NCBI GenBank assembly: GCA_963638805.1
Contig: CAVHTI010000005.1
Location: forward strand, 9,064-73,063
DNA: 64,000 nt
Direction: 5' to 3'
Origin: Anaerobutyricum sp.
GTDB lineage: Bacteria; Spirochaetota; Spirochaetia; Treponematales; Treponemataceae
Below are positions 5,313 through 53,820 of this stretch, piece by piece. Below the pieces are notes generated by a model. The model saw nothing but the letters and a program-made list of their open reading frames with translations, was not told the origin of the DNA and did not search any database. Positions within the stretch are counted from its first letter, which is position 1, and every line of letters begins with the position of its first letter. A program made the translations under genes and the position numbers.

Positions 5313-7655
5313 ATGGCTTTAAGACCAGAATGGGAAGGATTTAATTCTGAAGGCTTATGGACTGGCGAAATCAATGTTCGCGACTTTATTCAGGCTAACT
5401 ACACTCAGTATGATGGTGATTCATCGTTTTTAAAGGGTTCAACACCAGCAACAGATAAGTTGTTTGATGAACTTCAGAAATTGCAGAAAGCTGAGCACAC
5501 AAAAGTTTCTGTTGGTCTGGATGGTAAGCAGAGAACTGGTGTTCTTGACATGGATACAGATGTTGTAACCGGTCTTACTGCTCATCCTGCTGCATATATT
5601 TGTCCGGAAGGAAAAGAACTGGAACAGGTTGTCGGATTGCAGACTGATAAACCTTTGAAACGTGCATTTATGCCTTTTGGTGGAATTCGTATGGCAGAAC
5701 AGTCTTGCGAAATGTACGGATACAAACCAAATCCTGAATTACACAAAATCTTTACTGAATATCATAAAACACACTCTGATGCAGTTTTCCAGGTTTACAC
5801 ACCTGAAATTCGTAAAGCGCGTTCTTCACACATTTTGACAGGTTTGCCTGATACTTACGGACGCGGACGAATCGTTGGTGATTACCGCCGAATTGCTCTT
5901 TATGGTATTGATTATCTTATTGAACAGAAACAGAAGGATTTTGCAAACATCGGTTATGGAACAATGACAGAAGATGTTATTCGTCTTCGTGAAGAAGTTG
6001 CTGAACAGATTAAGGCTCTCAAGGGCATTAAAGATATGGCAGCAATTTACGGTTATGATATTTCTAAACCGGCAACAACTGCAAAAGAAGCTTTCCAGTG
6101 GCTTTATTTTGGTTACCTTGCAGCAATCAAAACTCAGAACGGTGCTGCTATGTCAGTTGGACGTATTTCTACATTCCTTGACATTTATATTGAACGTGAC
6201 CTTAAAAAAGGCATCTTAACAGAAGAAAAGGCACAGGAACTTGTTGACCACATGGTTATGAAATTCCGTATGGTTCGTTTTGCTCGTATTGAATCTTACA
6301 ACAACTTGTTCTCTGGCGATCCAGTTTGGGCTACTCTTGAAGTTGGTGGTCTTGGACAGGACGGTCGTTCAATGGTAACAAAGAATGACTTCCGATTCCT
6401 CCATACCCTTGAAAACATGGGACCTTCTCCAGAACCAAACATGACAGTTCTTTATTCAAAGAGACTTCCAGAAGCATTCAGAAAGTACGCTGCAAAAATT
6501 TCTATTGATACATCTTCTATCCAGTATGAAAACGATGATATTATGCGTCCAATCTGGGGTGATGATTATTCAATCTGCTGTTGTGTATCTGCTACACAGA
6601 CTGGTAAGGAAATGCAGTTCTTCGGTGCTCGTGCTAACCTTGCAAAAGCTTTACTTTACGCTATCAACGGTGGTCGTGATGAAGAAGCCGGACTTACACC
6701 AGGTGTTCAGGTAGGACCTGCTTATGCTCCAATTACTTCTGAATATCTTGATTACAAAGAAGTTATGGCAAAATATGACCTTTACCTTGAATGGCTTGCA
6801 GATTTGTATGTAAACGCTTTGAATGCAATTCACTATATGCACGATAAATATTACTACGAAGCTGCTGAACTTGCCCTTGAAGACACAAATATTAAACGTA
6901 CATTTGCAACTGGTATTGCAGGATTCTCTCACGTAGTAGATTCCCTTTCTGCAATTAAATATGCAAAAGTAAAGGTTATCCGTGGCGATGTTGAAGTAAA
7001 AGACAAGAAAACTGGCGCTGTAAAAGAAGTTGTAAAAGGCCTTGCAAAAGACTTTGAAATTGAAGGCGACTTCCCACGCTATGGTCAGGACGATGAAAGA
7101 GCTGACGAAATTGCTGTATGGTTGCTCAAGACATTTATGTCTAAGATTGCAAAACATCCTACATACCGCAATGCTGAACCAACAACATCTATTCTTACAA
7201 TTACTTCTAACGTTGTTTACGGTAAGGCAACAGGTGCTCTTCCTGATGGACGTAAAGCACACGAACCATTCTCACCAGGAGCTAACCCTTCTTACGGTGC
7301 AGAAACAAAAGGTTTGATTAAGTCTTTGAACTCTGTAGCAAAAGTACCATACAAATATGCTTTGGACGGTATTTCTAATACTCAGACAATCAACCCTTCA
7401 GCACTTGGTCACTCTGAAGATGAACGTGTACAGAACCTTGTAAACGTTCTTGACGGATACTTCTCTAAGGGTGCTCATCACTTGAACGTAAACGTATTCG
7501 GTGTTGAAAAACTCAAGGATTGTCAGGCACATCCAGAAAAACCTGAATATGCAAACTTCACAGTTCGTGTATCTGGTTATGCTGTACGATTCATCAACCT
7601 TACAAAAGAGCAGCAGGACGATGTTATTGCTCGTACTTGCCACGCTGCATTGTAG
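5313..7655 (+). CDS. pflB: Pyruvate formate-lyase (formate C-acetyltransferase)
   Basis: 780 aa. Active-site CCCVS ([16 protein letters not shown]) and C-terminal glycyl-radical motif RVSGYAV. Confidence 0.95.
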
Positions 7656-13457: not shown

Positions 13458-13493
13458 AAAAACTTTGCCTGGAATAGCGTCAAAGTTTTTATT
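13458..13493 (+). terminator. Terminator-like hairpin after cimA
   Basis: 10-bp stem AAAAACTTTG/CAAAGTTTTT with a 13-nt loop, running into TTTTTATT. Confidence 0.55.
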
Positions 13494-13613
13494 CACAAGT
13501 TTGCGTCGCAAACTTAATTATCTACTGCACATTCTCATTTCATTGCGAATGTGCTTAAAAAGTCAAATCGGAAATTGATATTTCCTCATTGACTTTTTAT
13601 GGGAGATATTTTT

Positions 13614-14734: not shown

Positions 14735-14768
14735 ACCGTTCTGATTTTACTTACAGGACGGTTTTTTT
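14735..14768 (+). terminator. Rho-independent terminator after leuB
   Basis: ACCGTTCTG / CAGGACGGT stem (one G-U pair) followed by T7. Confidence 0.8.
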
Positions 14769-14769
14769 A

Positions 14770-15053
14770 TTGAAGGTATAAAAGTACCTTCAAAATGGCG
14801 ATGTCAAGGCCCTGAGTGAAGCGTGCCTTGACGCGACTTATTGAAGGTATAAAAGTACCTTCAAAACGGCGATGTCAAGGCCTTGAGCGAAGCGTGCCTT
14901 GACGCGACTTATTGAAGGTATAGAAGTACCTTCAAAATGGCGATGTCAAGGCCCTGAGCGAAGCGTGCCTTGACGCGACTTATTGAAGGTATAAAAGTAC
15001 CTTCAAAATGGCGATGTCAAGGCCTTGAGCGAAGCGTGCCTTGACGCGACTTA
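14770..15053. repeat. Tandem array of four complete 71-bp units, plus a degenerate fifth unit to about 15076
   Basis: Units start at 14770, 14841, 14912 and 14983 (period exactly 71). Each unit is TTGAAGGTATAAAAGTACCTTCAAAATGGCGATGTCAAGGCCCTGAGTGAAGCGTGCCTTGACGCGACTTA, with 4 variable sites in total. Confidence 0.95.
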
Positions 15054-15076
15054 TATAAGGTATAAAAATACTTTCA

Positions 15077-15320
15077 GCGTAAGCGATTGTAGCAGCCGCG
15101 AAGACTGTTTCAACAGCCGAAGCGGAAGCCCGGAGCGGCACTATTTGTGCCGCGAGGACTTTGGAGCGAACAGCGGAATTGCGCGATGTTTTGTTTTCCT
15201 TACGAATGTAAAATAGAAAACAAAACTCGTGAGTGAAGCGTAGATAGCGCGACCCTGGCAGGCGGTTTTTACAAAAAATTAACGGTTTTCTGTAGATTCC
15301 GCCGGACAGGGGATACGCCC
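15077..15320 (+). repeat. Dispersed hairpin-rich intergenic element, copy A (full length)
   Basis: 5' module GCGTAAGCGATTGTAGCAGCCGCGAAG, hairpins at 15103-15118 and 15135-15153, linker GGAGCGAACAGCGGAATTGCG, an 11-bp A/T hairpin at 15188-15226, CTCGTGAGTGAAGCGTA, and 3' end GGGGATACGCCC. Shares modules with copies B-F. Confidence 0.8.
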
Positions 15321-15341
15321 ATATTAGGAATGGGAGAGAAA

Positions 15342-24305: not shown

Positions 24306-24613
24306 GGGCGTATCCCTCCGCTGCGCTCCGGGTCAGGCTTTTTACGCTTCGCTCACGAGTTTTGTTTTCTATTTTACTTTCGTAAGAAAAACAAAACATC
24401 GCGCGGTTCCGCTGTTCGCTTCAAACTTTTGCAATTTACAGTCAATTATAATTCGATTTTATGTGTTTGTGGGAGCTCGATCTTATGTCAGCCCGAATTT
24501 ATTTCGGGATCTCGGTGTAACAGATGCTGAAATGAATTCAGCATGACTTTTTGAAGAACTTTTCAGTCCAATTGCAAAAGTTCGGCTTCGCCGCCCCTCC
24601 AATCCTTTACGTG
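24306..24613 (-). repeat. Dispersed hairpin-rich element, copy B (inverted, with an internal insertion)
   Basis: Its reverse complement carries GAAGCGAACAGCGGAACCGCGCGATG, the A/T hairpin, CTCGTGAGCGAAGCGTA and ...GGGATACGCCC, with a degenerate 5' module at 24586-24613. A 13-nt inverted repeat AACTTTTGCAATT (24424-24436 / 24570-24582) brackets a 133-nt insert. Confidence 0.7.
24524..24552 (+). terminator. Terminator hairpin for lepA (shared module)
   Basis: ATGCTGAA / TTCAGCAT 8-bp stem with a 5-nt loop, then GAC TTTTT. Confidence 0.55.
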
Positions 24614-32891: not shown

Positions 32892-33017
32892 GCGTAAGCG
32901 ATTGTAGCAGCCGCGAAAGCGGGCCACGGCCTATGAGCGCCATTGTTCTGGCGCGGAATGCCGGGGCTGGAGCGAACAGCGGAACTGCGCAAAGCGCGAC
33001 CCGATAGGGGTACGCCC
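32892..33017 (+). repeat. Dispersed hairpin-rich element, copy C (short form)
   Basis: GCGTAAGCGATTGTAGCAGCCGCGAA is identical to copy A over 26 nt. It also has the hairpin GCGCCA-TTGTTC-TGGCGC (32937-32954), GGAGCGAACAGCGGAACTGCGC, and the end GGGGTACGCCC. Confidence 0.75.
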
Positions 33018-33115
33018 TGAAAATTCCTAAAAATAGTCTGATTGTAAGTCTTAAGAATTTTAATAGGTGAAATTCTGTAAAATGCCGGCGCGGATTTTTG
33101 GATTTTCTGATTTTC

Positions 33116-33927: not shown

Positions 33928-33956
33928 TCTTAGAAAAATCGTAGTAACGTGATTAA

Positions 33957-34000
33957 AATCCCTGCCCCCTGGAATTTATTTTTAGGACAGGGATTTTTTT
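33957..34000 (+). terminator. Rho-independent terminator after tpiA
   Basis: AATCCCTG / CAGGGATT stem followed by T7. Confidence 0.8.
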
Positions 34001-34058
34001 ATGGCCCCGTGTCACTCTAAACACGCAACCATGAGAATATACAAGATTTAAGGTGGTG

Positions 34059-34370
34059 GCACTAAAAATGAGTAACGGAAGGCGTGCTAAAACACACGAT
34101 ATTAAGAATATGCGTGAGAAAAAGCAATATAATGTGAACGGTACTGAAAATTAGTAACGGAAGGCGGGGTTCCGACCCTGAAAAAAAATCTGCACAAGCG
34201 AAGCGCGGAAGCCTTTTTTTCAGGGCGGGTTCACGCCTGAAGTTTACTGTAGTTACCCAGCGGGCCCCGTGCTTTTTCGTAAGCATATTCGACATTTATC
34301 ACGCAAGTTCACGCCTGAAGTTACTGATAGTTTCATCACCCGCACCACGCTTTTTCGTAAGCATATTCGA
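34059..34370. repeat. Composite tandem repeats in the tpiA-secG spacer
   Basis: An 82-bp-period pair (34059-34084 / 34141-34166, ..TAGTAACGGAAGGCG). A 78-bp-period pair (34229-34292 / 34307-34370, GTTCACGCCTGAAGTT..TTTTTCGTAAGCATATTCGA). A 12-bp inverted repeat CCCTGAAAAAAA/TTTTTTTCAGGG (34176-34225). Confidence 0.75.
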
Positions 34371-34450
34371 TTCAACTATGGACAAAAATATTTGATTTTA
34401 TTAAAATGACAGAACATTTAAAATGATTAAAACTATATTGGAGTAAATAA

Positions 34451-45489: not shown

Positions 45490-45590
45490 GGGGCGTTGCG
45501 GGGCCAAATGGAAAATAGATTGCCCCGCTAGAAGGGGTAGCGAGCAACGAAGTGCGAGCGAGGGGAAGGCTTTCCCCGCCTTTGCAAATT
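45490..45590. repeat. Probable divergent member of the dispersed element family (copy F)
   Basis: Starts GGGGCGTTGCGGGG. Hairpins are GCGGGGC..GCCCCGC and GGGGAA..TTCCCC, with GCGAGCAACGAAGTGCGAGCGAGG and ..CCTTTGCAAATT resembling copies B and E. Orientation is uncertain. Confidence 0.4.
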
Positions 45591-49416: not shown

Positions 49417-49422
49417 TTTTAC

Positions 49423-49580
49423 GGGCGCATTTTTGCTCCGCTACGGCTTTGCCTTCGTTTCGCAAAAAACGGGCTTTTCAGGGTTCCGCTATCGCTCCAA
49501 ACCTTTGCACTTCGCGCCAGAACAATGTCGCTACGTTTGCAAATGTTCACGCTTCGCGTGCCCTTACAATCCCATTGCGC
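49423..49580 (-). repeat. Dispersed hairpin-rich element, copy E (inverted, degenerate)
   Basis: GGGCGCATTTTTGCTCCGCTACGG.., GGTTCCGCTATCGCTCCAAACCTTTGC, CGCGCCAGAACAATGTCGCT and CTTACAATCCCATTGCGC align with the reverse complements of copies C and A. Confidence 0.65.
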
Positions 49581-49652
49581 AATTTTACACTGTTCAATGT
49601 TTATTTATTTTGTTAAAATGTTGCTTTCATTATCATTTTGCGAGGTGCTTTT

Positions 49653-53676: not shown

Positions 53677-53820
53677 GGGTGGCCCGGCAATAAATTGCCG
53701 TCGGGCTTTCCGCAATTCCGCTGTTCGCTCCAAAGTCCTCGGCGTGCAAATGGCACGCCTGTGGGCTTTCGCTTCGGCAATTGAAATTGCCTTCGCGCTT
53801 GCTACAATCCCTGCCACAGG
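53677..53820 (-). repeat. Dispersed hairpin-rich element, copy D (inverted)
   Basis: The reverse complement aligns with copy A: GGGATTGTAGCAAGCGCGAAG, hairpins at 53776-53791 and 53741-53759, and GAGGACTTTGGAGCGAACAGCGGAATTGCG (30 nt identical to A). Confidence 0.75.

Follow-up and report, generated by a model that had tools for sequence, protein, structure and literature searches.

A dispersed structured repeat family with compensatory stem variation in Treponema of the gut and rumen

Several hairpin-rich spacers in a 64,000-nt stretch of contig CAVHTI010000005.1 (assembly GCA_963638805.1, positions 9,064 to 73,063; deposited as Anaerobutyricum sp. and placed by GTDB in the Treponemataceae; hereafter the window) resemble one another, which raises the question of whether they form a single family and, if so, whether their fold is used as RNA or as DNA. 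A preliminary description of the window had listed six related elements (copies A to F) and had proposed a repetitive extragenic palindrome (REP)/bacterial interspersed mosaic element (BIME)-like repeat, a repeat like those known as MITEs (miniature inverted-repeat transposable elements), or a family of structured noncoding RNA (ncRNA). We find that copies A to E are members of one repeat family: two covariance models detected exactly these five copies in the window, at 41.4 to 84.6 bits, followed by a gap to noise. The copies are given below with the helices (P0, P1a, P1 to P4) and joints of the common fold described further on; elsewhere, L-numbers and H07677 denote the loci and strain contigs that were compared with the window.

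15077-15321, plus strand: copy A, full element (model match 15077-15208, 41.4 bits); P0 GCGTA/TACGC, core GGAGCGAACAGCGGAA at 15163-15178, an extra 59-nt hairpin module at 15184-15242, and a long P4
24306-24612, minus strand: copy B, degenerate (model match 24352-24612, 43.4 bits); core GAAGCGAACAGCGGAA, one mismatch in P1, a large insert between P2 and the core, and the 59-nt module of copy A
32892-33018, plus strand: copy C, the reference copy (84.6 bits); helices P0 at 32892-32896/33011-33015, P1a at 32898-32900/32995-32997 and P1 at 32907-32910/32985-32988; hairpins P2 at 32911-32922, P3 at 32923-32967 and P4 at 33000-33010; core at 32969-32984; joints J1 (ATTGTA) at 32901-32906 and J2 (GCAAAG) at 32989-32994
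49422-49581, minus strand: copy E, full element (model match to 49580, 63.2 bits); P0 GCGCA/TGCGC and core variant GGAGCGATAGCGGAA
53676-53817, minus strand: copy D, full element (72.5 bits); P0 GTGGC/GCCAC and canonical core

The strings and hairpins cited in the preliminary description all occur where it had placed them. GGAGCGAACAGCGGAAYTGCG is found at 15163 (plus), 24402 (minus, with 2 mismatches), 32969 (plus), and 53711 (minus), while GCGATTGTAGCAGCCGCGAAG is found at 15083, 32898, and 53791 (minus); shuffled sequences give a chance expectation of 0 for both. GTGAGYGAAGCGTA is present in copies A and B, as well as in four units of a 71-nt tandem repeat upstream of A. These conserved strings had been interpreted as single-stranded linkers, but parts of them are strands of long-range helices that had been missed: GCGTA...TACGC constitutes P0, GCG...CGC is P1a, GCAG...CTGC is P1, and the core holds a mini-hairpin. 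The proposed copy F (45490-45590) had to be dropped from the family, since its score (9.9 bits, E = 4.3) is that of noise and it lacks every family module. The interval itself, rich in GC and prone to form hairpins, separates a DnaJ-domain gene from a methionine aminopeptidase-like gene.

What fold do the copies share, and is it genuinely conserved? The common architecture was read side by side from ~60 copies in the window and in ~15 gut and rumen Treponema assemblies. It runs 5'-P0(5 nt)-A-[P1a, 3 nt]-AUUGKA-[P1, 4 nt]-[P2 hairpin]-[P3 hairpin, very variable]-U-GGA-[GC-GAACA-GC]-GGAA-[P1']-GNAWAG-[P1a']-GA-[P4 hairpin, variable]-(G)-[P0']-CC. The junction bears hairpins P2 and P3 together with a mini-hairpin, GC-GNNA-GC, between GGA and GGAA, and P4 is the 3' hairpin. 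The fold has two multi-helix junctions, and ~30 unpaired, purine-rich positions are near-invariant. Copies measure 82-261 nt in the alignment (median 121) and have six helices; copy B spans ~300 nt, and a group of short copies, referred to as type 2, is without P0 and P4. P0 varies freely in sequence (GCGTT, GCACC, GCGCC, GTGGC, and others), and the core mini-hairpin occurs as GC-GAACA-GC (38 copies), GC-GAAA-GC, GC-GATA-GC, GCGC-TTA-GCGC, and GGC-GAAT-GCC. From P1a to P1 the order is P1a, A·G, U-A, U-A/A-U, G·A, N·N, A·G, P1. Within this internal loop, columns 14 and 357 covary (U-A in 43 copies, A-U in 13, and other combinations in 3), and the P1a-P1 connection is therefore an irregular helix, bordered by A·G and G·A oppositions.

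Whole-copy MAFFT alignments were not structure-aware and the variable hairpins proved unalignable, so a first covariance model was built from 17 pruned core sequences and the hand-read structure, the real copies were re-aligned with it, and a second model was built from the re-aligned copies. Among the 60 distinct copies, 95.4% of 1366 cells were standard pairs, and double-sided changes were seen at every one of the 24 modelled pairs, with 404 compensatory cells in total. It should be noted that these pair counts lean towards the model because the first model came from the hand-read core, but the controls were far lower. In percentage paired, in compensatory cells counted, and in covariation score, none of 500 shuffles came up to the real alignment, and only 2 of 500 reached the count of pairs with double-sided change. 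Likewise, sliding the partners by 1-3 columns reduced pairing to 33-42%, and the first copy set gave a similar picture. The compensatory stem variation originally noticed in a handful of hairpins is therefore still significant in a far larger alignment, and the family has the covariation-supported secondary structure that is one generic criterion for a structured ncRNA. From these results, the family is a dispersed structured repeat with true compensatory variation.

The second model recovered 63 copies, 60 of them distinct, from 359 kb of fetched loci, spread over 46 stretches in ~15 assemblies plus strain contigs. The carrier assemblies, named Treponema or Spirochaetia or else evidently mislabelled, derive from the rumen of goats, the faeces of horses, and other gut material. 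When one genome per species was scanned with an exact pattern, 33 stretches were obtained, of which 31 held true elements, and a looser pattern added 4 more; with the bare 16-mer, the matches listed were mostly due to chance, and longer patterns were used for the census. Canonical-core copies number 3-9 per GTDB genome, and each genome carries tens of copies in all. The preliminary description had allowed that the copies might be confined to the window, and indeed A and B have 96 nt in common at 90% identity, as a local duplication might leave behind; between A and D, a stretch of 102 nt is 80% identical. Nevertheless, with no shuffle matches expected and 63 copies in ~15 assemblies from goat, horse, and other gut or rumen sources, chance similarity or local duplication is already refuted as an explanation and retains next to no probability.

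The family is previously undescribed. No copy matched any family of Rfam 15, TD-1, TD-2, and the self-cleaving ribozymes in that collection included, either at the gathering threshold or at E values up to 5 in the window and up to 1 in five further loci. A full-text literature search found the core 14- and 15-mers in no paper of the collection searched and returned only primers matching GGGATTGTAG, and searches on Treponema together with RNA motifs or REP/REP-associated tyrosine transposase (RAYT) systems turned up nothing on the element. A pattern search gave 0 matches in viral contigs and only 5 in JGI metagenomes. As to the host, a near-threshold TD-1 match (see below) and orthologues of the window genes with 72-84% identity in Treponema metagenome-assembled genomes (MAGs) assign the window to a gut Treponema, and in the carrier assembly GCA_963648145.1 the TpiA protein is identical and the flanks are 92-96% identical to those of the window. 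The element-carrying 'cleanbin' assemblies (L039-L139, L189, L196, and L206) include titles such as Lachnospiraceae, Parabacteroides distasonis, Anaerovoracaceae, Prevotella, Desulfovibrionaceae, and 'bacterium'. These labels look wrong, because H07677 encodes a TpiA identical to that of the window and has 92-96% nucleotide identity to it.

Does the position of the copies suggest a function? The window has a G+C content of 35-42% and a steadily positive GC skew, and its genes include leuA/leuB, lepA, murein ligases, ddl, tpiA, secG, a V-type ATPase operon, a parE-like gene, ornithine carbamoyltransferase (OTCase), lgt, and a fatty-acid kinase. The window copies neighbour leuB, an Mbeg1-like gene, lepA, an MptE-like gene, a GH10 glycosidase, tpiA, acyltransferases, the parE-like gene, and OTCase; in L118 the neighbours are NfeD, a GNAT acetyltransferase, and livH. 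Orientation relative to the flanking genes is mixed, much as had been noted from the window alone. Approximately 23 copies are compatible with sense transcription from a neighbour and ~8 run antisense to the genes on either side, including copy E, which opposes both the parE-like gene and OTCase. Relative to the GC skew, two window copies lie on the plus strand and three on the minus strand, and all loci scored against local skew split 32 to 16. Since the neighbours are functionally unrelated and the copies occupy 5', 3', antisense, and coding positions, the element is not a gene-specific regulator. A riboswitch or other gene-specific regulator of the 5'-untranslated region (UTR) would be in keeping with the placement of A, C, and the type 2 copies upstream of same-strand genes, but those downstream genes are unrelated, other copies are 3', antisense, or inside a coding region, and there is no Rfam match. 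This explanation is already contradicted by the gene contexts and we regard it as very improbable.

Copy D lies between divergent genes, upstream of a strong promoter-like site (11/12) for an 87-aa gene, and a second such site falls within the copy itself:

53660-53633, minus strand: promoter-like site beside copy D
53781-53808, plus strand: promoter-like site inside copy D, on its opposite strand

Neither terminator-like sites nor a promoter of their own was seen for the copies. TACAAT is the complement of the conserved ATTGTA, and in copies with a small TTTCAA-loop hairpin in P2 the other strand contains TTGAAA-16 nt-(TG)nTACAAT, which is a good sigma-70-like promoter directed outward at the 5' end. 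Complement-strand sites of this TTGAAA-16-TACAAT form occur in copies A (minus strand, ~15090-15117), D, and L136; a divergent gene is faced in D and L136, but not in A and L128.

We also considered traces of insertion. Across 27 copies, flanking direct repeats were no longer than those of mismatched flank pairs, and thus no target-site duplication was found. Copy E is flanked by a 7-8 nt direct repeat, GTAAAAT(T), at 49574-49581 and 49419-49426, which is probably due to chance because the flank repeats of the 27 copies match the null. The neighbourhoods of L124 and the window were not syntenic, and their comparison provided no empty site. All-against-all clustering of the open reading frames (ORFs) beside copies returned only syntenic orthologues and ABC ATPases.

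How stable are the copies among strains? The strain contigs compared encode TpiA, LepA, LeuB, or OTCase proteins identical to those of the window. Copy C occupied its site in all 20 strain contigs, and three strains have GGCGAATGCC as its core mini-hairpin instead. Copy E was present in all 6 strain sequences aligned, with a 22-nt insert in P4 only in the window and L165, and copy D had an equal score (72.5 bits) and length in L151, the sole other strain checked. Copies A and B have fared worse. The 5' 45 nt of A are deleted in L207-L210, by deletion between AGCG repeats, and its site gave no model match in 9 of 10 strains. The 59-nt module of A is shared by the window and the L207-type strains and absent from L164, L213, and H07677. 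In copy B, ~127 nt (roughly 24338-24464, comprising the core and the module) are missing in the 4 strains aligned, and all 10 strains tested gave only weak matches (22-33 bits) at the site. The comparison of insertion sites among related strains, which the preliminary description had put forward as a check, therefore yielded shared occupied sites and module-sized insertions and deletions, but no case of whole-copy absence.

The differences between strains are also distributed in a telling manner. Between the window and H07677, copy A differs at ~10 base pairs (in P2, the inserted hairpin, P3, and the core mini-hairpin), all of which are compensated, whereas its 3' half shows few differences and the flanks are 92-96% identical. 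Moreover, copies A and C both carry GGCGAATGCC in H07677, while both carry GCGAACAGC in the window strain. Such replacement by segments, with matching changes at separate loci, points to exchange among the copies by recombination or gene conversion, which would probably underlie the replaced segments and would also account for 'compensatory' differences arising faster than point mutation permits.

A related repeat directly precedes copy A:

14767-15076, plus strand: 71-nt tandem repeat of 4.4 units with 94% matches, abutting copy A

The strings GCGATG, GAGCGAAGCGT, and CGCGAC recur in its unit, in the 59-nt module carried by A and B, and in the 3' part of A, and strains with the same or near-identical flanks have anywhere from none to several units. 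The tpiA-secG spacer (window 33928-34450; L142 3250-4500) holds arrays of 76-80-nt tandem repeats and ranges from 381 to 1249 nt across strains encoding identical TpiA. In L166/L168, at ~1143-1290 between the parE-like gene and copy E, there is an extra 135-nt hairpin-rich insert, absent in the window, which seems to be another small palindromic module.

The only known coding site of the element is in metH, where five loci have a copy in sense and in frame:

L134, 951-1050: in-frame sense copy in metH
L135, 7669-7768: in-frame sense copy in metH
L014, 913-1033: in-frame sense copy in metH
L181, 2088-2181: in-frame sense copy in metH
L182, 1968-2064: in-frame sense copy in metH

In many gut Treponema the element is thus embedded in methionine synthase, at the linker that joins the pterin-binding domain to the B12-cap domain. 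In MetH, GGGATTGGA is translated as G-I-G and AATGGAGCGAACAGCGGA as N-G-A-N-S-G, and the insert as a whole, 33-40 aa in length, reads roughly GIGAPPSGVPNAERNGANSG. Among 22 aligned MetH orthologues, insert carriers span 100% to ~75% identity, while some closer relatives (T. ruminis, 91%) have a short linker with possible remnants. T. ruminis yielded no match to the exact core. The five nucleotide versions display compensated changes in P0, P1, P2, P3, and P4, and because the frame stays open in all of them, the element in metH is translated rather than spliced. In L134, a second, near-identical 3' part of metH encoding the B12-binding domains (6174-6971) begins exactly at an element of a different subtype, and the only start codon available to it is the ATG where P3 meets the core; either a partial duplication or recombination at the element, or else a MAG assembly artefact, may have produced it.

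At which level, then, is the fold used? In typical RNA families, wobble pairs are not as rare as A·C mismatches. Here, G·U accounts for 23 of 1366 cells (1.7%) and A·C for 18 (1.3%), and because the two are about equally rare there appears to be no strand-specific tolerance of wobble; predicted G·U fractions did not favour the sense strand either. The P2 and P3 loops are of the C-GNA-G or GNNA type and the core is GCGAACAGC or GCGAAAGC. Both resemble d(GCGAAGC) and d(GCGAAAGC), which are exceptionally stable DNA mini-hairpins. The minimum-energy fold coincided with the covariation structure for L119, C, and D under DNA parameters and only for D under RNA parameters. With DNA parameters the sense strand proved the stabler of the two strands in 59 of 60 copies, and with RNA parameters in 57 of 60, so one particular strand matters whichever molecule carries the fold. 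Given the rare wobble, the DNA-like loops, the folds under DNA parameters, the mixed orientation, the copies outside transcription units, the copy in a coding region, and the decay in some strains, the explanation that we tentatively rank first is a non-autonomous REP/BIME-like structured repeat, which would be kept up at the level of DNA or of a single strand and would be passively transcribed.

Under this explanation, the fold would be a recognition scaffold of single-stranded nucleic acid, used and maintained at the DNA level, unlike a riboswitch. The copies might have been seeded long ago by an enzyme encoded elsewhere than nearby and thereafter inherited vertically, with recombination or gene conversion keeping them alike and with the gain and loss of small hairpin modules diversifying them. 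They would be transcribed only passively with their neighbours, and their stable fold may incidentally punctuate or stabilise mRNA. Action as single-stranded DNA, a dedicated trans-acting enzyme for mobilisation or maintenance, and any effect on mRNA are the parts of this scheme that we infer.

A functional structured RNA family, which we rank second and consider possible, would instead have the fold made in transcripts and either bound by a cellular factor or itself active, and would explain the multiplicity of copies by the usefulness of the module in many mRNAs. It might punctuate processing or stability within operons or serve as a protein-binding module; in the most far-reaching case it would be a small ribozyme or a domain that binds a ligand. 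Several of the loops are GNRA-like (GAAA, GTAA), the metH copies retain all helices while the peptide changes, and the greater stability of the sense strand holds with RNA parameters as well. Copies also lie in sense in operon spacers that are syntenic across species, between livK-like genes and livH (L118, L120, and L137) and between ABC ATPase and binding-protein genes (L111 and L127), and the TD-1 and TD-2 motifs of Treponema denticola provide a precedent (PMC1950547). On the other hand, about a quarter of the copies are antisense to both neighbours and yet intact, E being intact in all strains examined, and D sits upstream of its neighbour's promoter-like site with no promoter or terminator of its own in evidence. 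Wobble pairs and A·C mismatches are similarly scarce, most strains have broken forms of A and B that nothing has replaced, and the neighbouring genes have no function in common.

Nonetheless, a number of observations weigh against maintenance at the DNA level. The two multi-helix junctions and the near-invariant unpaired bases are more typical of functional RNAs, while the known single-stranded DNA substrates are simple hairpins. The scarcity of G·U could merely reflect short, GC-rich helices. The fold is kept across species at presumed orthologous copies with conserved flanks, in the metH linker, the livK-livH spacer, and the ABC-operon spacer, and this conservation could equally mean selection for a host function at each site. 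Every type 2 copy has the sense orientation and sits 40-67 nt upstream of a start codon. Nor did a mobilising enzyme come to light: the 50 ORFs of the window are all housekeeping genes, with no transposase, integrase, or reverse transcriptase among them, and only ordinary genes (LysR, acetyltransferase, HisB/HisG, and PFK) lie between inverted copy pairs 1.5-1.9 kb apart. Lastly, no whole-copy presence/absence polymorphism was detected in 10-20 strains, as all five sites were occupied (for D, in one other strain), and mobility is therefore not demonstrated. A more adventurous idea, which we consider unlikely, places the novelty in the core itself, such that its purine-rich irregular helix and GGA-[GC-GNNA-GC]-GGAA junction would form the centre of a new catalytic, ligand-binding, or protein-binding RNA carried on a repeat, or else the substrate of a novel single-strand-specific recombinase or transposase that keeps up the family in spirochaetes in a REPIN-like symbiosis.

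A stricter version of the DNA explanation, ranked third, is that the element is a true REP/REPIN, the substrate of a single-copy RAYT (an IS200/IS605-type Y1 HUH enzyme) recognising a GTAG-tagged hairpin. The preliminary description had drawn this link from a conserved GTAG, and a G-[T/G]-A-G string does lie directly 5' of P1. The lack of target-site duplication, the presence of both orientations, and the vertical inheritance at persistent sites, as reported for REPINs, fit as well. However, the tetranucleotide is GTAG in only 28 of the 60 copies (GGAG in 13, GGAA in 8, GTAA in 3, and others in 8), and its last G is the first, covarying base of P1. The copies are 82-261 nt long with six helices rather than 20-40-nt palindromes and form no inverted doublets (none among the five copies of the 64-kb window). 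Only 3-9 canonical-core copies are present per genome, and no Y1 transposase is encoded in the window or between inverted copy pairs. We consider this version improbable. The alternative suggestion of a MITE fares no better, as there are no terminal inverted repeats beyond the 5-bp P0 and no target-site duplication. Thus, the initial characterization stands as far as a dispersed structured intergenic repeat is concerned, but neither its MITE nor its GTAG/RAYT component does.

Knowledge of dispersed structured repeats comes mainly from proteobacteria and firmicutes, and REP-RAYT biology has been understood only recently. An analogous element, of far greater structural complexity and with unusually clean covariation, is present in uncultured gut spirochaetes, where it is located in operon spacers, beside promoters, and inside methionine synthase. 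In the source species, the family accounts for much of the strain-level variation in intergenic length. The covariance model is ready for use in genome annotation, where such GC-rich islands otherwise inflate ORF calls and break assemblies. The family is also a natural test case for distinguishing selection on RNA structure from palindrome maintenance at the DNA level combined with gene conversion, and it is a candidate for either a new RNA class or a new single-strand DNA enzyme system.

Where does the element stand among known systems? Several memberships were tried and rejected. The short palindrome, the invariant GTAG/CGTC head, and the >100 copies per genome arranged as inverted doublets that mark REP/BIME-RAYT systems are all lacking, as are the terminal inverted repeats and target-site duplication of MITEs, together with their whole-copy polymorphism in the strains examined. 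The orientation bias with replication direction of IS200/IS605-derived elements (PATE) was not found, nor were the constant sense 5'-UTR position and related genes of a riboswitch or cis-regulatory leader. Integron attC sites were rejected as well: these would have R''/R' core sites (RYYYAAC ... GTTRRRY), arrays of uniform orientation between cassettes, and a nearby intI, but here P0 is free, orientation is mixed, and the neighbours are housekeeping genes. Resemblances to a K-turn, a sarcin-ricin loop, a tRNA-like CCA end, CsrA GGA sites, and attC core sites were judged by eye and were unsupported by the variable positions.

Closest in host are TD-1 and TD-2 (Weinberg 2007; TD-1 is RF03155), covarying motifs that in T. 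denticola show no coherent association with genes (PMC1950547). Like the element, they are multi-copy (28 and 36), have covarying modular stems, and have been left undecided between RNA and repeat, but they have another architecture and no sequence or model match to it, and the base-pair support of the element is much cleaner (95% paired). In the cmscan search, TD-1 itself appeared only at 13487-13604 (plus strand), between leuA and leuB, with 62.6 bits against a gathering threshold of 64.5. Because of this match, TD-1, described only in T. denticola, seems to be present in gut Treponema too. The Rickettsia palindromic elements (RPE) are likewise structured repeats found in frame within genes and translated as an extra peptide, as in MetH, but they are simple palindromes of unrelated sequence and host, and the element has a single known coding site. 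BOX of pneumococcus and Correia/NEMIS of Neisseria are similarly modular, with variable internal modules and outward promoter-like hexamers, and are transcribed with their neighbours. Correia elements differ in their terminal inverted repeats and TA duplication and BOX in its boxA, boxB, and boxC modules, and neither has a conserved multi-junction fold with invariant junction bases. Compared with the REP/BIME/REPIN systems of proteobacteria, the element has three to six times the length, folds through long-range helices and two junctions where they have one palindrome, is without an invariant GTAG/CGTC tag or inverted doublets, and occurs in tens rather than hundreds of copies, in a spirochaete host. 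It fails each of their defining features that was tested, yet these are the systems that it appears to work most like: both are dispersed, mostly intergenic, GC-rich relative to the genome, folded as a single strand, present in both orientations without target-site duplication, vertically inherited at fixed and often intercistronic sites (e.g., between binding-protein and permease genes), and mosaic and modular in composition.

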